From: Demequina sp.
GTDB lineage: Bacteria; Actinomycetota; Actinomycetes; Actinomycetales; Demequinaceae
Length of the DNA: 64,000 nucleotides
Reading direction: 5' to 3'
Assembly: GCF_016278765.1 (NCBI RefSeq)
Contig: NZ_JADQBE010000017.1
Coordinates: 15,313 to 79,312 of the forward strand
Shown: one piece after another, positions 4,095 through 58,718 of the stretch
Layout: the number at the start of each line of letters is the position of its first letter
Numbering within the stretch: position 1 is the first letter of the stretch
Translations under genes and position numbers: made by a program
The notes under the pieces: model-generated
Seen by the model: the letters and a program-made list of their open reading frames with translations, nothing else
Told to the model about the DNA's origin: nothing
The model's database searches: none

Positions 4095-5375
4095 ATGAGC
4101 ACGGGAACCGAGCGCGTCTATGTGGCGCGCCTCGCCGGTACCAACGTCTTCGATCCCCTTGGCGATGCGGTGGGACGCGTGCGCGACGTTGTGATCCTGA
4201 TGCGCCGGACGGGGGCCCCGAACGCCGTCGGCCTCGTGGTCGAGGTTCCGGGGCGTCGGCGCGTCTTTCTGCCTTTGACCAGGGTGACGTCGATTGCGCC
4301 CGGCCAGGTGATCTGCACGGGCGTTGTCAACCTCCGTCGGTTCCAGGCGCGCGCCTCCGAGACCCTTGCGGTCGCCGAGTTGTTCGAGCGCTCGGTCACG
4401 CTCAAAGAGGACAACTCAACGGCGTACATCGAGGACATCGCCATCGAGCGGGACCGGACCAAATCGTGGAATGTGTCCAAGCTGTATGTGCGCAAGACCG
4501 GGCGCCGCAAGGGCGTGCTGGGCTTCAGTCGCCGCGGTGAGGCCGTGGTCGTCGATGTCGACCAGGTCACGGGGCTCGCACAACGCGACAAGAACCAGGG
4601 CGCCGCACTTGTCATCCAGTCGTTCGTCGACCACAAGCCAGCCGACCTCGCCGCGGCGCTCATGGAGATGTCGCCGTCGCGGTCCGCCGAGATTGCGGCC
4701 GCCCTCGACGACGAACGGCTTGCCGACGTGCTGGAGGAACTTCCCGAAGAGGACCAGATCGCGCTCCTTGGCACCTTGCGGTCCGACCGCGCCGCGGACG
4801 TGCTCGAAGCCATGGATCCCGACGATGCTGCGGACCTTCTGGGAGACCTGCCCGAGTCCGAACGAGCGGCGCTGCTGGAGCTCATGAAGCCCGAGGACGC
4901 CAAGGCGGTGCGTCAACTGCTCACGTATGCGGATGACTCCGGCGGCGGCCTGATGACGACCGAGCCCGTCATCGTCGGGCCCGAGACCACCATCGCGACC
5001 TGCCTGGCGATGCTACGCAGGCAGGAGCTTCCCCCCGCTCTCGCTTCCATGGTGTTCGTGGTCCGGCCCCCTCTTGAGGCACCCACCGGCCGATTCATCG
5101 GCCTCGTGCATATTCAGAGGTTGCTGCGCGAAGCACCCCGCGACGCAGTCGGCAACTACGTGGACCCCGCAATCGCGCCCGTCGAACCGACGGATCACCT
5201 GTCGGAGATCGCGCGCCGCATGGCCGCGTACGACATCCTCGCCCTGCCCGTTGTCGACCCCGACCACCACCTGGTGGGCGCGATCTCGATCGACGACGTG
5301 CTCGACCACCTCCTGCCCAGCGACTGGCGCGAACACTTCGACGACGACCAAAATGCGGACGGCACTCATGGCTGA
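4095..5375 (+). CDS. Soluble MgtE-N-domain / CBS-pair protein (no membrane domain)
   Basis: Acidic helical MgtE_N-like repeat 'LEELPEEDQIALLGTLRSDRAADVLEAMDPDDAADLLGDLPESERAALLELMKPEDA' is followed by two CBS-like modules. No hydrophobic C-terminal segment is present. Confidence 0.8.
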   Translation: MSTGTERVYVARLAGTNVFDPLGDAVGRVRDVVILMRRTGAPNAVGLVVEVPGRRRVFLPLTRVTSIAPGQVICTGVVNLRRFQARASETLAVAELFERSVTLKEDNSTAYIEDIAIERDRTKSWNVSKLYVRKTGRRKGVLGFSRRGEAVVVDVDQVTGLAQRDKNQGAALVIQSFVDHKPADLAAALMEMSPSRSAEIAAALDDERLADVLEELPEEDQIALLGTLRSDRAADVLEAMDPDDAADLLGDLPESERAALLELMKPEDAKAVRQLLTYADDSGGGLMTTEPVIVGPETTIATCLAMLRRQELPPALASMVFVVRPPLEAPTGRFIGLVHIQRLLREAPRDAVGNYVDPAIAPVEPTDHLSEIARRMAAYDILALPVVDPDHHLVGAISIDDVLDHLLPSDWREHFDDDQNADGTHG

Positions 5376-5877
5376 GCGCAGGCTCGATCGTCCCAAGGGC
5401 GAGCGGCGGGGCTTTGGCATCCCTCGGCGCCAGGGCACCGACCGCTTTGGCCGCATCTCCGAGGGCATCGCCCGTTTTCTTGGCACGCCTCGATTCCTCG
5501 TCTATCTGACGGTCTTTGTCATCATCTGGTTGATCTGGAACACCTGGGCACCCACCGGACTGCGATTCGACTCCGCGTCAAACGGCTACACCGCACTGAC
5601 ACTGATGCTGTCGCTCCAAGCCTCCTACGCCGCCCCATTGATCCTGTTGGCGCAGAACCGCCAGGACGACCGCGACCGTGTGGCCGCCGAACAGGACCGA
5701 CAGCGCGCGGAGCGCTCGCTCGCGGACACCGAGTATCTGGCCCGCGAGGTCGCCGCGCTGCGCCAGGCGATCAACGAGACGGCCACCCGCGACTTTGTGC
5801 GTTCGGAACTGCGTGCGCTCCTTGATGAGTTGCGAGCGGACGACCGTGATCGCGGCGAGGAAGCGAACGCCGAGTAA
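5368..5877 (+). CDS. DUF1003-family membrane protein
   Basis: ATG at 5368 overlaps the upstream stop (ATGGCTGA). 'FGRISEGIARFLGTPRFLVYLTVFVIIWLIWN...LTLMLSLQASYAAPLILLAQNRQDDRDR' matches the DUF1003 pattern of two TM helices plus a C-terminal coiled coil. Confidence 0.7.
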   Translation: MAERRLDRPKGERRGFGIPRRQGTDRFGRISEGIARFLGTPRFLVYLTVFVIIWLIWNTWAPTGLRFDSASNGYTALTLMLSLQASYAAPLILLAQNRQDDRDRVAAEQDRQRAERSLADTEYLAREVAALRQAINETATRDFVRSELRALLDELRADDRDRGEEANAE

Positions 5878-6028
5878 CGACCGTCCGGCGCGCCAGGCTA
5901 GGACATGGTGCGGGTGGGCCCCGTTCTTCCCCCTCGAGCCTGAACGTCCTCCGTTTCACGGGTATGTGGGTGACTTCGCGTGCTCCAGCGGTGGCCGGCG
6001 GACGAACCGGCCCGCAAGCGTGCCTACG

Positions 6029-50321: not shown

Positions 50322-50491
50322 GGAAAGACTCCTTCGCGGGCGCTACGCGGCAGCGGTCTCGAAAGGGCGCGAGCGCACCACGTTGCGCCCCTCCACCTTG
50401 GCATCGTAGGGCGCATCGTCTGCCTATGGTGACGCGCGCCCCGAACGCGCCTGGTCTCAAGGTCCCGGCCAAGACGTGGAATGCTTAGGGG

Positions 50492-52573
50492 GTGACACGT
50501 AGCATCTACATCGCATCCGTCGAGGGAGATACGGGCAAGTCAACGATCGCCCTCGGCATCACCGCGCTCCTCGCGCGCACCGTCACGAAGGTGGGTATCT
50601 TCAGGCCCGTCGCGCGCGTCTCGACCGGATCCGACTACGTCCTGCGGCTCCTCCTGGGCTACGACGGCGTCGACCTGGACTACGACGAGTGCGTGGGCGT
50701 CACCTACGAGGAGATCCACGCGGACCCCGAAGCGGCCCTCTCGCGCATCGTGACGCGCTACCACGAGGTCGCGCGCAAGTGCGATGCCGTCGTGATCGTC
50801 GGCACCGACTACACGGACGTCGCGGGTCCGGCGGAGTTTGAGCTGAACGCCAAGGTCGCCGCGAACCTGGGCGCGCCCGTCGCGCTCGTGATCCGCGGCG
50901 CCGACCGCTCGCCATCCGACATTGCGGACGTGCTCGTGCAGGCACGCAGCACCATGGAGGACCATCACGCGAAGGTGGTCGCCGTCTTCGCGAACCGATG
51001 TGAGCCCAACGACGTCGAAGCCATCCGGAAAGCCCTTCCCGCAGACATTGGCGTTGCGGCGCTCCCCGAAGAGCCACTGCTGTACGCGCCGACGCTCGGG
51101 GCACTGCGCGACGCCATCGACGGCGAGATGATCGCGGGAGATGAGGCTCTCCTGTCGCGCGAGGTGCGCGCCATCTCGATCGGCGCCATGACGGTGGAGC
51201 ACCTGCTGGACCGTCTCGAAGAGGGCGCCCTCATCATCGCCCCCGGCGACAGGTCCGACACCCTGCTCGCCGCGCTGACGGCACACTCCGCCACGGGATT
51301 CCCCGCGCTGGCCGGCATCGTGGTCAACGGCGGCTTCCTGCCGCCCCCGTCGGTCCAGCGCCTCCTCGACGGCTTGGGTCCCACCCTGCCGATCATCGCG
51401 ACCAAGCTGGGCACGTTTGAGACGGCGCAGCGGTGTTGGAACACCCGCGGCCGCTTGTCTCGCGAGTCCGTCCTCAAGGTCGACATGGCGCTCAGCATGT
51501 TTGAGAACTACGTCGATGGTTCACAGCTCACGGATCGACTGAACCTGGCGGAAACCGACGTGGTGACGCCGCTGATGTTCGAGTACGCCTTACTCGACAG
51601 GGCACGCACCAAACGCCAGCGCATCGTCCTTCCCGAAGGCGAAGACGATCGCATTCTTCGCGCTGCGGGCACCCTGCTGACCCGCAACGTGGTGGATCTC
51701 ACCATCTTGGGCGATCCGGCCGCGATCACGACGAGGGCCGGAGAACTGGGCATCGACCTGTCCGCGGCGCAACTGCTGTCACCGTCGGACCCCGAGCACG
51801 TCGACCGCTTCGCCGCCGAGTACTACGAGATGCGCAAGCACAAGGGCATGACCCCTGAGGCGGCGCGCGACCGGGTCCAGGACGTCAGTTACTTCGGCAC
51901 CATGATGGTGGAGCTCGGGCTCGCGGACGGCATGGTGTCAGGGGCGGCGCACACCACGGCCCACACCATCGTGCCGTCGTTCCAGATCATCAAGACGAAG
52001 CCGGGTGTCTCGGTCGTGTCGTCGGTATTCCTCATGTGTCTCGCCGACCGCGTCCTCGTCTACGGCGACTGCGCGGTGAACCCCGACCCCACGGCCGAAC
52101 AGCTCGCCGACATCGCCATCTCGTCCGCCGAGACGGCGCAGCAGTTCAACATTGAGCCCCGCATCGCCATGCTGTCGTATTCGACCGGCGAGTCCGGAAC
52201 GGGATCCGATGTCGACAAGGTCCGCGAGGCCACCCGGTTGGTGCGCGAGCGGCGCCCGGATCTGCTGATCGACGGGCCGATTCAATATGACGCCGCAGTG
52301 GAACCGTCGGTCGCCAGGTCGAAGGCACCCAACTCCCCGGTGGCCGGACGCGCAACCGTGCTGATCTTCCCCGACCTCAACACGGGAAACAACACCTACA
52401 AGGCCGTGCAACGTAGCGCAGGCGCGGTTGCCGTTGGCCCGGTCCTGCAGGGTCTCAGGAAGCCCGTCAACGACCTCAGCCGCGGTGCACTGATCCAGGA
52501 CATCGTCAATACCGTGGCCATCACGGCCATTCAGGCACAGCAGATGAGCGCGGACAACGCGGCGGAGGGATAA
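50492..52573 (+). CDS. pta: Phosphate acetyltransferase (long form with N-terminal P-loop/DRTGG region)
   Basis: 693 aa. The C-terminal PTA_PTB core includes 'IVLPEGEDDRILRAA' and 'ANLLIFPDLNTGN'-type 'TVLIFPDLNTGNNTYK'. Confidence 0.95.
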   Translation: MTRSIYIASVEGDTGKSTIALGITALLARTVTKVGIFRPVARVSTGSDYVLRLLLGYDGVDLDYDECVGVTYEEIHADPEAALSRIVTRYHEVARKCDAVVIVGTDYTDVAGPAEFELNAKVAANLGAPVALVIRGADRSPSDIADVLVQARSTMEDHHAKVVAVFANRCEPNDVEAIRKALPADIGVAALPEEPLLYAPTLGALRDAIDGEMIAGDEALLSREVRAISIGAMTVEHLLDRLEEGALIIAPGDRSDTLLAALTAHSATGFPALAGIVVNGGFLPPPSVQRLLDGLGPTLPIIATKLGTFETAQRCWNTRGRLSRESVLKVDMALSMFENYVDGSQLTDRLNLAETDVVTPLMFEYALLDRARTKRQRIVLPEGEDDRILRAAGTLLTRNVVDLTILGDPAAITTRAGELGIDLSAAQLLSPSDPEHVDRFAAEYYEMRKHKGMTPEAARDRVQDVSYFGTMMVELGLADGMVSGAAHTTAHTIVPSFQIIKTKPGVSVVSSVFLMCLADRVLVYGDCAVNPDPTAEQLADIAISSAETAQQFNIEPRIAMLSYSTGESGTGSDVDKVREATRLVRERRPDLLIDGPIQYDAAVEPSVARSKAPNSPVAGRATVLIFPDLNTGNNTYKAVQRSAGAVAVGPVLQGLRKPVNDLSRGALIQDIVNTVAITAIQAQQMSADNAAEG

Positions 52574-52578
52574 CCCCA

Positions 52579-53715
52579 GTGGCAGTGAACTACATCGGAT
52601 TGGCACTCGTCCTCAACTGTGGCTCGAGTTCCGTCAAGTATCAGGTGGTCGACACCACCCTTGACGCGCCCCTCGCGTCCGGGCTGATCGAGCGCGTAAC
52701 GGACCACGGCCTCGCGATCCGCGAGGTGATTGAACGCCTCGGCGCTCCAGAGTCCGGCATCGACCTCAGTCAGATCAGCGCCGTGGGTCACCGCGTTCTG
52801 CACGGCGGCGAGGAGTTCTCCGCCCCCACCATCATCGACGACGAGGTGGAGCGCAAGATCGCACTGCTGGCGCCGCTCGGTCCGCTCCACATCCCGGCAA
52901 ACCTGGCGGGCATCACCGCCGCCCGTCAGGCGTTCCCCCACACGCCTCACGTGGCCAACTTCGACACCGCGTTCTTCCAGACCATGTCCGAAGCCGCGTA
53001 TACGTACGCGATCGACAGGAACGTCGCGGCCGAGAACGCGATTCGGAAGTACGGATTCCACGGCACCAGCTACGCATACCTGGCTCACGAGGCACCGCGG
53101 GTCATGGGAAAGCGCCCCGACGAGGTCAACATCATCGCCCTGCACCTGGGCAACGGAGCCTCCGCGTGCGCCATGCGCGCCGGGCGAGCGATCGACACGT
53201 CGATGGGCCTCACCCCACTCGCGGGCCTCGTGATGGGCACCAGGACCGGCGACATTGACCCCGCCATCGCATTCCACCTGGGCCGCAGCGCCGGAATGAC
53301 GCTCGACGAGATCGACCACCTCTTCAACCGCCAGTCGGGGATGCTGGGCCTCACCGGCTACTCGGACATGCGGGATGTCGAAAAGGCCGCAGCCGACGGC
53401 GACCACGACGCCCAACTGGGCCTCGAGATCTACTGCCGCCGCATCCGCGGCTACGTGGGTCAGTACTACGCGCAATTGGGTCACCTCGACGCGATCGTGT
53501 TCACCGCGGGCGTGGGCGAAAACTCCGACGTGGTGCGTCTGCAGTCACTCGTGGGCTTGAGTGAATTGGGCATCATCATCGACCCCGAACGCAATGCTGG
53601 CCGAAAGAAGCAGGCCGCGTTGGTCAGCGCGGACGAGTCCGCTGTCGAGGTCTGGGTAGTCCCAACGAACGAGGAACGCGAGATCGCACTCCAGTCGATC
53701 GCGGCCGTCTCGTAG
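52579..53715 (+). CDS. ackA: Acetate kinase
   Basis: GTG start. 'VLNCGSSSVKYQV', 'GFHGTSY', 'IVFTAGVGENS'. Confidence 0.95.
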   Translation: MAVNYIGLALVLNCGSSSVKYQVVDTTLDAPLASGLIERVTDHGLAIREVIERLGAPESGIDLSQISAVGHRVLHGGEEFSAPTIIDDEVERKIALLAPLGPLHIPANLAGITAARQAFPHTPHVANFDTAFFQTMSEAAYTYAIDRNVAAENAIRKYGFHGTSYAYLAHEAPRVMGKRPDEVNIIALHLGNGASACAMRAGRAIDTSMGLTPLAGLVMGTRTGDIDPAIAFHLGRSAGMTLDEIDHLFNRQSGMLGLTGYSDMRDVEKAAADGDHDAQLGLEIYCRRIRGYVGQYYAQLGHLDAIVFTAGVGENSDVVRLQSLVGLSELGIIIDPERNAGRKKQAALVSADESAVEVWVVPTNEEREIALQSIAAVS

Positions 53716-53909
53716 GACACCCCAAGCGGGAGGCGACCTCCGCTGACCGCCCGCGACGCCGAGGGTTTCGACGGCGCGGTGCATCACGTGGGGCCCGTCT
53801 TGGCAAAGTTGCTCATCACACGCCGTTGTTGGCCGATAAGCACACTGACACGCAAGCGAGCCGCGTGGGCACCTGTGACCGCGCGGCTGGAGTGAGGCGA
53901 GAGGACAAC

Positions 53910-54659
53910 ATGGCGACAACGTCGAGTTGGGTGGCGCACGCATCTCGCGAGCCCAACGCCGGGATGATTCGTGCTCTTCACGAGTGGATCGATGACTCGG
54001 TGAGACTCGCTGCCGCCACACCCGGATCCTGCCCGTTCTTGGCTGATGCGGTCTTCGCCGGAATCGTTGCCCATACCGACAGGGCGCTCCACAAGCGCCG
54101 TCAGCGCCCAACGTTCCTGTCCTCTCACCCATGCGGATTGCAGTCCCTCGCGGCTCACGGCCTACGCCCCATGTGCGACGTGATCGACCACGACGAATTC
54201 GGCCCCGAAGAGTTGCTGGTCGAGCACACTGGGGGCACGTCCACGTTGGCCGAAGCCATCGCGAGCGCGGCCGGGGCCGACATGTCGGCCTTCGTTCCCG
54301 TCTTCACCGAGTCCGAGTTCATGGACGCCGATCTGTTCCACCTGCACAACGCGCAGCTTCTCAATCCGCGCCACGGAGGCGTCGTGATCCCGTTCATGAT
54401 CGTTCCCGTCGGAGACTCGGAGCAGGAAACGCAGGACCGTGAGGACATCGTCCGTGCAATGGGTTTCACCAGCTATACCTTCGAATGCGATTGGGATGAC
54501 TTCACGCTGGAGGATCACACGCGCCTGGCGCTTTTGATGGAAGATGTCCTTGACGAGATCGTTCAGATCAAGTCGGACGCGGAGGCGAGGCTACTCAGCC
54601 GTCCGCCGCTGTGGCCGCTCGTCGAGATGCGTGCAAGCCCCGGTGAGGGGTTCAGGTGA
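53910..54659 (+). CDS. Acidic hypothetical protein, paralog 1; distant phosphoketolase N-domain (XFP_N)-like, with catalytic motifs lost
   Basis: ATG at 53910 after GAGGCGAGAGGA. 249 aa. Colinear with the next ORF. 'AFVPVFTESEFMDADLF..LLNPRHGGVVIPFMIV..REDIVRAMGFTSYTF..DHTRLALLMEDVLDEIVQIKSDAEA..PPLWPLV' parallels the Xfp segments '[78 protein letters not shown]'. Confidence 0.6.
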   Translation: MATTSSWVAHASREPNAGMIRALHEWIDDSVRLAAATPGSCPFLADAVFAGIVAHTDRALHKRRQRPTFLSSHPCGLQSLAAHGLRPMCDVIDHDEFGPEELLVEHTGGTSTLAEAIASAAGADMSAFVPVFTESEFMDADLFHLHNAQLLNPRHGGVVIPFMIVPVGDSEQETQDREDIVRAMGFTSYTFECDWDDFTLEDHTRLALLMEDVLDEIVQIKSDAEARLLSRPPLWPLVEMRASPGEGFR

Positions 54660-54711
54660 GGTCCACCGCGCACTGTCTGCTGAGCCGCACGCACGAGGTA
54701 GGTGACTTGAC

Positions 54712-55515
54712 ATGAAAACTCCCATCTCCAGTTGGGTCACGCACGCGGGCCGCGAGCCTGCGGAGGTAGTGGTGAACGCGATGGACGAGTGGTGGCGCAA
54801 CACTCGCACACCACGCGCGGCTGAGGTGCCGTGCCATTGGCGCCGCGACGCGTTGCACTCACTGGTGCTTGTCCACGTCGACCGCGCCGCACACAAACGC
54901 CGCCACCAGCCCACCTTCGTCTCCGCGGCCCCGTGCGACTCTCCCGGCGAGGATCACGGCCTGACGCCCATGAGCGCGATTGTCCGGGATGACACGTATG
55001 GGCCCCAACCTGTGCGCATCGTCCACGCGAACCCCGAATCGGCGGTCGGCCGCGCGATCACCATGGTCAGGGGTGAAGAGGGCACGTTGGCCGTGGCCCT
55101 CGCGACCGAGACGGAATTCGACGACGCCGACTTCTTTGACGCGCATCGCGCCTCGCTCGTCAACCCCCTGCGGGACGGAGTGGCGCTAGCGATCATTCAC
55201 GCGGAACTGCAGGGTCCGGAGGCGGCACACCAGGTGATGGAGCGGGAGGACCTGCTGCGTGCGGCGGGCTACGCGGCCTACACGATCGACCTCGACGGCG
55301 ACGACGACGACCACACGGTGCACCGCCATCTCGCCGGGCTGCTCGAGGACGTCTTTGACGAAGTCGCGGGCATCAAAGCCGACGCCGCCGCCCGTGTCCT
55401 GTCGAGCACTCCGCTGTGGCCGGCATTGGTGATTCGCACCTTCCCCCTGTGGCGGCAGAGGCACAGCGCACTCACCGCACATGCTGCCGAACTTCCCCTG
55501 AAGAGAAGCCGCTAG
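54712..55515 (+). CDS. Acidic hypothetical protein, paralog 2; distant phosphoketolase N-domain (XFP_N)-like, with catalytic motifs lost
   Basis: 267 aa. 'LAVALATETEFDDADFF..SLVNPLRDGVALAIIHAELQG..REDLLRAAGYAAYTI..DDDHTVHRHLAGLLEDVFDEVAGIKADAAA..TPLWPALVIRTFPLW'. Shares 'SSWV[AT]HA[SG]REP' and 'H[TV]DRA[LA]HKRR..PTF' with paralog 1. Confidence 0.6.
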   Translation: MKTPISSWVTHAGREPAEVVVNAMDEWWRNTRTPRAAEVPCHWRRDALHSLVLVHVDRAAHKRRHQPTFVSAAPCDSPGEDHGLTPMSAIVRDDTYGPQPVRIVHANPESAVGRAITMVRGEEGTLAVALATETEFDDADFFDAHRASLVNPLRDGVALAIIHAELQGPEAAHQVMEREDLLRAAGYAAYTIDLDGDDDDHTVHRHLAGLLEDVFDEVAGIKADAAARVLSSTPLWPALVIRTFPLWRQRHSALTAHAAELPLKRSR

Positions 55516-55720
55516 CGTCGAGCCACGCGCGTAGCGAGCGGACGCTCGCGCTGGCCGCGCTCGACACCGCCAAGCGCCATCGCCCTGAGCTGCGCCCCAA
55601 GCAGATGCCGAGGGTGTGCAGGTCCGATGCGGCAAGGGTATCCGCGGCGACGTTGACGGACGTGCCCCTGTGGCCCCACCGCAGTCGAATCGGGGGCGCC
55701 AGAACGTCTACCCTTGGCGG

Positions 55721-57640
55721 GTGGCACATCTGATCGGCGCAGAGGGTCTCGGCGTCGATTTCGGCACCGGCCCCGTTCTCGACGGTGTCACGCTCGGCCT
55801 GGAAGACGGCGATCGCATCGGCGTCGTCGGCGCCAACGGCGCCGGCAAGTCCACCCTCATCTCCGTCTTGGCTGGCCTCAGGCCCGCGCACGCCGGTCGC
55901 GTGACGCGCGCCACGGGCGTGCGCGTCGGCGTGGTCGACCAAGGGGACGCCTTTACGCCGGGTGCCACCGTGCTCGACGCGATCGTTGGCGACGCGGCGA
56001 GGCACGAGTGGGCCGGCGACCCACGGGTTCGGGACATCATGGCTGGCCTGGTCCCGGATCTGGACGCCGATGCCCTCGTGGGTTCGCTGTCGGGCGGACA
56101 ACGTCGCCGCGTCGCGTTGGCGCGCACGCTCGTGGACGACGACGACGTGCTGGTGCTCGACGAGCCCACGAATCACCTGGATATCGACGGCGTCGCGTGG
56201 CTGGCATCGCACCTGCGGCGCCGGTGGGCCACCAACCGGGGCGCGCTCCTGGTGGTGACCCACGACCGCTGGTTCCTCGACGAGGTCACCTCGCGCACCT
56301 GGGAAGTGGTCGACGCCGGGGTCGAGCAATACGAGGGCGGCTACGCCGAGTACATTCTCCAACGCCTGGAACGCAACCGCATCTCCGCCGTGACGGAGCA
56401 GCGTCGGCAGAACCTGCTGCGCAAGGAACTCGCCTGGCTGCACCGCGGCGCGAAGGCACGCAGCACCAAGCCCAAGTTCCGCATCGACGCGGCGAATGCG
56501 CTCATCGCGGACGTGCCCGAAGTGCGCGACCCCATCAAGCTTCAGCGCATGACCGCCGCCCGACTCGGCAAGGAGGTCGTGAGCCTCATCAACACTCACG
56601 TCACCTACCCTGGCCCGCCGCCCATGGAGGTGCTGAAGGACGTGACCTGGCTCATCGGGCCGGGCGAGCGCACCGGGATTCTGGGCCCCAACGGCGCCGG
56701 AAAGTCGACGCTGTTGAAACTGATCACGGGTGAGGTCCAGGCGACGCAGGGCTACGTCAAGCGCGGCTTGACCGTCAAGGTCGCCGCGCTGTCGCAGCAC
56801 CTCGTGGAGCTCGACGAATGGGCGGGTCACAGGGTCGCCACCGTGCTCAGGCAGTATTCGTCCATCAAGCTCGCCGACGGCACCGAGCTCACGCCCGGCC
56901 AATTGCTGGAGCGGGTGGGCTTCAATCCCTCCCAACTCAAGACCCAGGTGAGCGCGTTGTCCGGGGGTCAGCGTCGTCGGCTGCAGCTACTGGTGGTGCT
57001 GCTCAGCGAGCCGAACGTGCTTGTGCTCGACGAGCCCACCAACGACCTCGACACGGACATGCTCGCGGCGCTCGAGGACCTGCTCGACTCGTGGCCGGGA
57101 ACGCTCATTGTGGTAAGCCACGACCGGTACCTGATGGAGCGCGTCACGGACCAGCAGTACGCGGTGATGGACGGCGGCCTGCGGCACCTGCCCGGCGGCA
57201 TCGACGAGTACATTTCGCTCGCGCAAGGCATGTCCCGCGTCGGCGGCGGCGTGGGCACGTTCGGGCCCGATGCTGCCGACGGCGGCGGCGCGTCGCCCTC
57301 CCCCGCCGACGCTGCGAACCTTTCGGATACTGGACGCGCGGGCGCAAGCGCCAGTGAGGCCGGTAGAGAGGGCGCGTCGACTGCGACGCCGGTTCGTAGC
57401 GTCAACGGTGCGGCGCTATCGGGCGCGGGCCTGAGAGCGGCGCAGAAGGAACTGGCGGCAGTCGAGCGGCGGCTCAAGAAGGTTCTTCAGCAGAAGGCAG
57501 AGCTCGACACCAGGATGTCGGCTCACGACCCGACGGACTACCCGGGACTCGCCGCCCTCGCGGCGCGACTTCCTGTGCTCGACGCCAAGGCGACCGAGCT
57601 CGAGGAGCGGTGGCTCGAACTGAGCGAGGCCCTCGGCTAG
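55721..57640 (+). CDS. ABC-F family ATPase (Uup-like, no membrane domain)
   Basis: GTG at 55721 gives 'VAHLIGAEGLGVDFG'. Two Walker A motifs ('GANGAGKST', 'GPNGAGKST'), two 'LSGGQRRR' signatures, and a C-terminal coiled coil. Confidence 0.9.
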   Translation: MAHLIGAEGLGVDFGTGPVLDGVTLGLEDGDRIGVVGANGAGKSTLISVLAGLRPAHAGRVTRATGVRVGVVDQGDAFTPGATVLDAIVGDAARHEWAGDPRVRDIMAGLVPDLDADALVGSLSGGQRRRVALARTLVDDDDVLVLDEPTNHLDIDGVAWLASHLRRRWATNRGALLVVTHDRWFLDEVTSRTWEVVDAGVEQYEGGYAEYILQRLERNRISAVTEQRRQNLLRKELAWLHRGAKARSTKPKFRIDAANALIADVPEVRDPIKLQRMTAARLGKEVVSLINTHVTYPGPPPMEVLKDVTWLIGPGERTGILGPNGAGKSTLLKLITGEVQATQGYVKRGLTVKVAALSQHLVELDEWAGHRVATVLRQYSSIKLADGTELTPGQLLERVGFNPSQLKTQVSALSGGQRRRLQLLVVLLSEPNVLVLDEPTNDLDTDMLAALEDLLDSWPGTLIVVSHDRYLMERVTDQQYAVMDGGLRHLPGGIDEYISLAQGMSRVGGGVGTFGPDAADGGGASPSPADAANLSDTGRAGASASEAGREGASTATPVRSVNGAALSGAGLRAAQKELAAVERRLKKVLQQKAELDTRMSAHDPTDYPGLAALAARLPVLDAKATELEERWLELSEALG

Positions 57641-57803
57641 CTGCCGCCTGAACGCGACCCCCACCTGCGCCCAGACCACTGCGAACTCACCTCCGTCCCG
57701 ATCGCGGTGAGTGTTGAGATGGCCCTCGTGACGGGCCACACCACCTCACGGATTCGTTCGCCACGTGGCATGCGGGCAAGTACCCCACAAGGAGGAGGTC
57801 GGT

Positions 57804-58718
57804 GTGCCGCCGCACCCTTGGAGCTACCACCCTGCCGACATCGCAAGCAGCGAAGACGTCGCGGCCATCGACCGGTGGTGGCGCGCCACCACCTACCTGA
57901 GCGTCGGCCAGATCTACCTGCTCGACAACCCCGTGCTACGCGAGCCGCTTCGCCGCGATCACGTGAAGCCGCGCCTGGTGGGCCACTGGGGAACCACCGC
58001 CGGCCTGCGTTCGCGCGACTACGTGAACGTGGTGGTCGCCGGCAAGCAGCCGCAGGCCTCATGGCTCACCATGAACGAGGCGATCGACCACTGCACGCGC
58101 GGCATCGGCATCTGGGGCTTCGCGTCCACCGTGCCGCTGGGCGAGAAACCCGACGCCGTGATGGGCGCCGCGGGCGATGTGCCCACACTCGAAGTCCTGG
58201 CGGCTATCGACATCATCCGCAAGGAACTTCCGCGCCTCAAGGTGCGCATGATCAACGTGGTTGACCTCATGCGGTTGCAACCCGAGAAGGAGCACCCCCG
58301 CGGCCTATCCGACCGGGACTTCGATCAGCTGTTCACCACGGACAAGCCCATCATCTTCAATGACCACGGCTACCCGTGGCTCATCCACCGGCTCACCCAC
58401 CGCAGGACCGGCCACGCCAACCTGCACGCGCGCGGCTACAAGGAAGAGGGCACCACCACCCCGTTCGACATCGCGATGATGAATGATATTGACAGGTATC
58501 ACCTGGTAATCGACGTCATCGACCGGGTTCCCGGGCTGGGAACTCGCGCGGCGTCACTGCGTCAGAAGCTGTTCGACATGCGCCTGGGGGCCCGCCGTGA
58601 TGCCCGCGAATTCGGCGAAGATCAGCCGCAAGTGGCGGATTGGGTCTGGCCAGACGCCCGCGGTTTGGTTGACAATGCTGTGGACGCTGTCGCCGCCACC
58701 GGCGGTGACAACAAGTAG
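57804..58718 (+). pseudogene. xfp: Phosphoketolase with a large in-frame internal deletion (N-terminal ~70 aa joined to C-terminal ~240 aa)
   Basis: GTG at 57804 after GGAGGAGG. '[44 protein letters not shown]' joins (around 58008-58019) directly to '[21 protein letters not shown]...[40 protein letters not shown]'. Full-length Xfp is ~800 aa, and the TPP-binding PP and Pyr domains are absent. The ORF itself is intact. Confidence 0.65.

Follow-up and report, generated by a model that had tools for sequence, protein, structure and literature searches.

Can the cofactor-binding domain of an enzyme outlive its cofactor site as a gene of its own? Enzymes that depend on thiamine diphosphate (ThDP) have a textbook fold defined by that cofactor, and the question is raised by two adjacent genes in a 64,000-nucleotide stretch of a Demequina sp. 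genome (assembly GCF_016278765.1, contig NZ_JADQBE010000017.1; the whole stretch is hereafter called the window). P1 (positions 53910-54659, forward strand, 249 aa) and P2 (54712-55515, forward strand, 267 aa), separated by a spacer of 52 nt, were taken in a preliminary description, made from the DNA letters, for catalytically dead fragments of the N-terminal domain of phosphoketolase (Xfp/Xpk, EC 4.1.2.9 / 4.1.2.22; structures 3AHC, 3AI7 and 8IO8). Our analysis shows that both genes descend from the part of phosphoketolase that binds ThDP, its N-terminal (PP) domain. Their products lack the cofactor motif, are predicted to keep a complete fold and bear the marks of purifying selection. As far as we found, stand-alone PP domains without the cofactor motif and under strong purifying selection are undescribed in the literature searched.

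The two open reading frames (ORFs) are present as first described, and their products are colinear paralogs: BLASTP aligns them over 242 aa with 39% identity and 4 gap positions (E 1e-53), far beyond chance. Both exceed the gathering score of the Pfam profile XFP_N (PF09364; 23.7 bits), P1 with 29.4 bits and P2 with 37.7 bits over profile positions 180-284, and XFP_N is all that they possess of the three-domain architecture XFP_N + XFP (PYR) + XFP_C (~800 aa). NCBIfam matches were confined to phosphoketolase models, the best reaching 43 bits against cut-offs of 777-1518. A profile built from 60 family members matched the phosphoketolase chains of B. breve (E 3e-15) and B. longum (E 4.5e-13, chain positions 160-304), and hhalign against an alignment of Xfp N-domains placed P2 residues 7-249 on Xfp 9-304 (99.3%, E 1e-20). 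The latter coverage contradicts the earlier impression that the N-terminal half resembles Xfp only weakly.

AlphaFold2 models built on family alignments were confident for both proteins, with a predicted local distance difference test score of 91.2 and a predicted template modelling score of 0.89 for P2, and of 92.9 and 0.90 for P1; the C-terminal ~18 residues of P2 vary, and their model has low confidence. Both models contain six β-strands in the α/β layout of the PP domain. In a Foldseek search against the PDB, the best 20 matches of P2 and the best 19 of P1 were all phosphoketolases at a probability of 1.0 (TMq 0.53-0.62 for P2 and 0.44-0.69 for P1), followed by MenD and BCKD E1α and then by DXS and transketolases, with a split transketolase for P1 only. 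Stand-alone PP subunits among the matches were BCKD E1α, split transketolase and RhiEF for P1, and BCKD E1α, AzcBC and RhiEF for P2. Models and fold search thus agree on a six-stranded parallel α/β PP-domain fold, and P1 and P2 are, on these predictions, trimmed yet complete domains, for which the word fragments no longer fits. The assignment to the phosphoketolase N-domain is itself borne out by the XFP_N scores, by hhalign, and by the models and their structural matches.

In all ThDP enzymes, the GDG...N motif and a glutamate of the PYR domain have an established role. We number Xfp residues after a B. longum sequence; it reproduces the literature residues H64, H97, H142, D182, N215, H320, E479 and H553 and agrees with the coordinates of the PDB matches. 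Our alignments concur with the preliminary description that GDGE has given way to TESE in P1 and TETE in P2 and that the Asn motif has disappeared: G181-D182-G183-E184 of Xfp corresponds to T132-E133-T134-E135 in P2 and to residues 133-136 in P1, while Asn215, the Mg ligand within HLNGYK, is replaced by Glu in P2 and by Pro in P1. Xfp residues 33-55 and 148-159 (the HEGGELG loop) are deleted from both proteins and residues 100-120 partly so, and the PYR and C-terminal domains are absent. Because the GDG...N motif, the HEGGELG loop and Xfp 33-55 are lost and the PYR domain is missing, ThDP chemistry should be impossible, and we consider catalysis through this cofactor excluded for P1 and P2.

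The catalytic residues of Xfp are His64, His97, His142, His320, Glu479 and His553 (PMC10547157). Among the family members, the equivalent of His142 (H105) is invariant, and His97 was matched by H82 in one hhalign run, with H82-G83 on His97-Gly98, and by C75 in the other. The position of His64 is variable, with conserved neighbours C41 (invariant) and W43; His320, Glu479 and His553 fall in parts that P1 and P2 lack, leaving the catalytic set of Xfp incomplete. E133 of P2 stands where Xfp has Asp182. Across 60 family sequences, 31 columns are invariant, including six His, one Cys, six Arg and four Asp, and two nearly invariant positions bring the histidines to eight in all; both P1 and P2 retain the full invariant set. 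H55, R58, H204, D216, K222, P234, P237 and R242 are invariant in the family and in Xfp (there H77, R80, H260, D272, K278, P289, P292 and R297) and are probably structural. Invariant in the family alone are S6, W8, H11, R14, E15 and P16, C41 and D57, the run H61-K62-R63-R64, and R178, R183, D213, D224 and R228. The motifs that had been singled out as absent from Xfp were invariant or nearly so in the 60 members, except that the H-x-D-R portion of one corresponds to H77-x-N79-R80 of Xfp and is not the family's own.

In the models, the C-terminal strand ends, which form the former cofactor cleft, would carry H82/G83, H105, E133, D138 and H145, and the N-terminal ones, on the other face, HKRR, R183 and R228. 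C75 is present in at least 90% of the 60 members, and a cluster of C41 with C75 or H82 and with H105 at the former active site appears at least as plausible as the C41/H55/H61/C75 metal site suggested earlier. Having lost the cofactor motif and being kept under purifying selection, these proteins are pseudoenzymes in the operational sense. Strict pseudoenzyme status is possible; the many invariant His, Arg and Asp residues and the invariant Cys would leave room for a neo-enzyme.

How strongly are these genes maintained? Our search returned 63 homologue clusters for P2 at 37-78% identity and 46 orthologue clusters for P1 at 57-89%, with nearly all family members measuring 240-280 aa. Pairwise ratios of nonsynonymous to synonymous substitution rates (dN/dS; Nei-Gojobori), obtained at saturated dS, were 0.02-0.24 for P1, 0.04-0.38 for P2 and 0.19-0.42 for single-copy forms of the family, compared with 0.02-0.37 for ackA, 0.02-0.15 for pta and 0.09-0.12 for xfp; P1 is the slower-evolving copy of the pair. 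Judged by these ratios, P1 and P2 are functional genes under purifying selection, with a constraint similar to that on pta and ackA or few-fold looser, and the earlier argument against neutral decay stands. Among the observations that the preliminary description had named as fatal to it were a lack of XFP_N or fold signal, a lack of homologues and dN/dS near 1; we found the signal, the homologues and lower ratios.

Every named cluster of the family comes from Demequina, Demequinaceae or related metagenome-assembled genomes (MAGs). A hidden Markov model search of 1.84 billion cluster representatives recovered ~10 representatives of the family and no members outside Demequinaceae; all other matches covered profile positions 109-250 only and were ordinary, often fragmentary, phosphoketolases. 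The short family is absent from Cellulomonas, Isoptericola and Sanguibacter despite the conservation of Xfp there, which is 73-87% identical across these genera and Demequina. A neighbour-joining tree unites the family as one monophyletic group, joined to Xfp by a long stem. The tandem duplication is placed inside Demequinaceae, because the tree holds single-copy clades next to separate clades of P1 and of P2. The likeliest origin of the family is a partial duplication of the downstream xfp, two or three genes away, followed by a burst of divergence.

A further stand-alone, XFP_N-like protein of 273 aa (P0183, L027 140-961) was examined as a distant family member and rejected as such, being closer to ordinary Xfp. 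GDGEA is replaced by DEDEA, the protein stops close to Xfp residue 375, and its gene lies on a 1.3-kb metagenome contig next to a membrane-protein gene. P0183 may be a second, independent case of a short phosphoketolase N-domain without the cofactor motif, in another organism.

A Shine-Dalgarno sequence precedes the starts of both P1 and P2, and the ATG of P1 and its AGAGGA (53900-53905) are kept in orthologues. In public assemblies of the window genotype (L021, L022 and L023), the gene caller shortens P1 to 162 aa (5460-5948, forward strand, in L021). A 195-aa antisense ORF is called over the P1 start (53545-54132, reverse strand, in the window; 4834-5421, reverse strand, in L021). The sense frame of 249 aa is the one backed by its conservation among orthologues and by dN/dS. 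The composition of the pair is less distinctive than first thought. With isoelectric points of 4.75 and 5.77, P1 and P2 are no more acidic than the flanking Pta (4.9) and AckA (5.2), contrary to a proposed excess of Asp and Glu, and the lower GC content at third codon positions (GC3) reported earlier is real, though modest, at 0.77 and 0.82 versus 0.855-0.86 in the neighbours.

Which pathway do the genes belong to? In the window they follow pta (50492-52573, forward strand) and ackA (52579-53715, forward strand), the latter directly 5' of P1 across a spacer of 194 nt (53716-53909, forward strand). We mapped the synteny by tblastn in 16 distinct related loci, drawn from 15 GTDB species genomes together with complete genomes and MAG contigs, and in several assemblies of the window genotype made independently. 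Wherever a locus covers the upstream side, the family gene or genes directly follow pta-ackA. The pair is present in the window, Demequina sp. TTPB684, D. lutea and several MAGs, and a single copy in D. aestuarii, NBRC 110051, 110055 and 110057, D. litorisediminis and HGW-Actinobacteria-4; the sole copy is P1-like in two MAGs, L017, whose contig ends inside the gene, and L018. The rest of the neighbourhood varies: a MASE7-GGDEF gene may precede pta, the 3' end of P2 may be overlapped by a convergent gene for a class-I glutamine amidotransferase (GATase), and inserts may separate the ABC-F ATPase gene from xfp. None of the loci examined contains a PYR-only gene. In D. litorisediminis NBRC 112299 (L020 6611-10731), pta, ackA and the single-copy family gene are split into several frames; frameshift errors of assembly or sequencing are a likelier cause than real pseudogenes.

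The spacer between ackA and the family measures 128-271 nt across loci. An alignment of eight orthologous spacers revealed conserved blocks within 53803-53850 (CTCAy at ~53812 and GnCGAT at ~53832-53837), 70-100 nt upstream of the P1 ATG, in an otherwise diverged sequence; these blocks may represent a promoter of P1-P2 or an operator. A motif drawn from them, though with a faulty spacing, matched once in the window, at chance level, and the idea of a second copy upstream of pta or xfp was abandoned. A consensus scan detected no sigma-70-like promoter or terminator between ackA, P1, P2 and the ABC-F gene, and an Rfam scan of 53500-55900 gave no match at E values up to 1. Downstream, the ABC-F ORF (55616-57640, forward strand) was called mechanically from a GTG at 55616, giving 674 aa; alignment with its orthologues indicates that it is ~35 codons too long and that the real start lies near 55721. 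P2 is therefore followed by a ~200-nt non-coding gap, which holds a GATase relic (55545-55633, reverse strand) of 20 + 13 aa. A second relic, 29 aa of a MASE7-GGDEF C-terminus, lies between SURF1 and pta (50337-50423, reverse strand). Both relic genes are intact in related Demequina.

Beyond the ABC-F gene lies what is left of phosphoketolase itself (57765-58718, forward strand, 317 aa; Pfam XFP_N 3-57 and XFP_C 1-202). Alignment with intact Demequina Xfp shows residues ~1-71 joined in frame to ~586-824. An in-frame deletion of ~72-585, ~513 codons, has thus removed the PP core and the entire PYR domain, and the same deletion is found in the independent ENA assembly L021, where it is called as a 304-aa gene. 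We presume that this remnant represents the parental or paralogous enzyme gene, dead in the window lineage. Most Demequina loci carry an intact xfp 2-8 kb downstream. In HGW-Actinobacteria-4, IMPDH and RNase T come immediately after ABC-F, the usual xfp slot between ABC-F and IMPDH is empty, and the single-copy family gene is intact. Within 10 kb, the window has suffered three independent gene losses (GGDEF, GATase and xfp), a sign of reductive evolution in its lineage, with P1 and P2 intact throughout.

We propose, with a probability of about 0.4, that P1 and P2 are cofactor-free accessory or ligand-sensing proteins of the acetyl-phosphate node that work independently of Xfp, through a remodelled cleft and a basic face, as a homodimer or a P1:P2 heterodimer. 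Such a role is suggested because the family persists where xfp is broken or missing from its slot; linkage is constant to pta-ackA only, as GGDEF, GATase, inserts and xfp come and go. Under this proposal, P1 and P2 would belong to the Pta-AckA node and would not partner Xfp. The altered cleft (H82-G83, H105, E133, D138 and H145) would probably bind either a metal ion or some small ligand that carries phosphate, and the basic set H61-K62-R63-R64, R178, R183 and R228 at the N-terminal edge of the sheet would probably contact an anionic partner, for which Pta and AckA, both acidic, are candidates. The protein of single-copy species would form a homodimer, and the duplicates a P1/P2 heterodimer.

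Several points weigh against this proposal. The C-terminal part of the xfp remnant has a dN/dS of 0.08-0.19, like intact orthologues, and a value of ~0.1 may mean that the deletion is recent or that the remnant is still in use. Genomes without a copy at the locus could carry xfp elsewhere, which weakens the case for independence from Xfp. The spacer length and its conserved blocks suggest that the pair is transcribed separately from ackA, and synteny inside one bacterial family is weak evidence for functional coupling. Ligand, partner and oligomeric state are all inferred, the two-face placement of conserved residues follows from strand topology rather than coordinates, and the two hhalign runs disagree over whether C75 or H82 occupies the place of His97.

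Might P1 and P2 instead be directed at phosphoketolase, binding and regulating the full-length enzyme, for example through its PYR-domain face or the oligomerisation surface of its N-domain, in the manner of dead paralogs that tune an active relative? The homodimer of Xfp is obligate because, as is established for ThDP enzymes, both subunits contribute to the active site, and a rival PP domain would find little space there. The idea draws on the paralogy of P1 and P2 with the Xfp N-domain, on the proximity of an intact xfp in most Demequina loci and on the B. longum octamer, in which dimers are joined through N-terminal-subdomain contacts (PMC10365998). It fares poorly in the window, where the pair is intact and constrained beside an Xfp without ~72-585, and in HGW-Actinobacteria-4, which keeps its family gene next to an empty xfp slot; moreover, the universal adjacency is to ackA, not to xfp. 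We regard regulation of Xfp as unlikely. An allosteric ATP site, as in cyanobacterial Xfp, was considered as a retained ligand site and discarded, being located in the C-terminal domain (PMC10365998) that P1 and P2 lack. It is likewise doubtful that the cleft catalyses a ThDP-independent, possibly metal-dependent reaction at the acetyl-phosphate or pentose-phosphate node, such as acetyl-phosphate hydrolysis or transfer. The number of invariant polar residues is unusually high for a scaffold (H55, H61, H82, H105, H145, H204, C41 and K62, with D57, D213, D216, D224, R58, R63, R64, R178 and R228), and the whole set is present in both paralogs; either alignment keeps an equivalent of His142, and one of His97 is probably kept as well. 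No known catalytic motif or family was matched besides XFP_N, however, and the residues shared with Xfp (H55, R58, H204, D216, K222, P234, P237 and R242) may be structural. Most of the residues that bind substrate and phosphate in Xfp, as listed from a cluster model (PMC10547157), lie beyond residue 320, in the absent domains.

That P1 and P2 are PP subunits of a split ThDP enzyme, pairing with a separate PYR subunit as E1α does with E1β, we judge very improbable. Stand-alone PP subunits do follow phosphoketolases in the Foldseek results, and E1α, the split transketolase N-subunit and the subunits of sulfopyruvate and phosphonopyruvate decarboxylases have the PP fold as a separate polypeptide, as P1 and P2 do. 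Yet those subunits keep GDG...N, bind ThDP and are encoded beside a PYR partner, whereas our family has [ST]-E-x for GDG, lacks both the Mg-binding Asn and the HEGGELG loop, and has no PYR-type gene at any locus. Least credible of all is that the ORFs are pseudogene debris or chance products of high GC. The decay of xfp in the window lineage, the slightly lower GC3 and the splitting of P1 by some gene callers might invite that view, which is refuted by dN/dS of 0.02-0.38 at saturated dS; in addition, ~100 clusters agree in length, orthologues share start codons and Shine-Dalgarno sequences, and the AlphaFold2 models are confident.

Set beside Xfp, the family presents a mixture of retention and loss. 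P1 and P2 are colinear with residues 9-304, have the same PP fold and lie in the same neighbourhood as xfp, with the eight common residues and the His142 equivalent kept. They differ in their size (249-267 aa versus ~820) and lack XFP (PYR) and XFP_C; they have T-E-[TS]-E for GDGE, no Asn215 and deletions in three active-site or cofactor loops; His64 is not conserved, and SSWVxHAxREP and HKRR are their own. Identity to Xfp is ~25%, compared with >73% among Xfp orthologues. A parallel exists in human TKTL1, a transketolase paralog that has lost cofactor-contacting residues through a 38-residue deletion in its PP domain, has been retained nonetheless and is discussed as a non-canonical or regulatory paralog. 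Both are retained paralogs of ThDP enzymes without cofactor-contacting PP residues, but TKTL1 keeps three domains and most motifs, whereas the Demequina proteins are single-domain, far more diverged, bacterial and arranged in tandem.

What is already known of these proteins is that databases flag an XFP_N domain in them; what is new is a stand-alone XFP_N subfamily without the ThDP motif. As the preliminary description had supposed, no family of this kind has been described: database matches are generic XFP_N ones, members are named hypothetical protein or, misleadingly, phosphoketolase, and literature searches for phosphoketolase pseudoenzymes, truncated phosphoketolase or XFP_N proteins and Demequina phosphoketolase found nothing relevant. 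Given the misnaming and the truncation of P1, metabolic reconstructions of Demequina MAGs could credit them with a phosphoketolase pathway by mistake. With a range confined to one family of Micrococcales, the finding has a limited immediate impact. In its most specific form, we think it improbable that a ThDP-enzyme domain has turned here into a cofactor-free protein with a new function, a metal or phospho-ligand sensor or an acetyl-phosphate neo-enzyme, beside Pta-AckA and independent of Xfp. Such a function would be built from remnants of the phosphoketolase cleft: the counterpart of His142, a Cys that is new, and the acidic loop that stands where GDG was. If true, it would be a clean and recent case of an enzyme domain gaining a function after partial gene duplication, and, should P1 and P2 modulate the Pta-AckA switch, they would be a new player at the node that in actinobacteria sets ATP yield, acetyl-CoA supply and protein acetylation.

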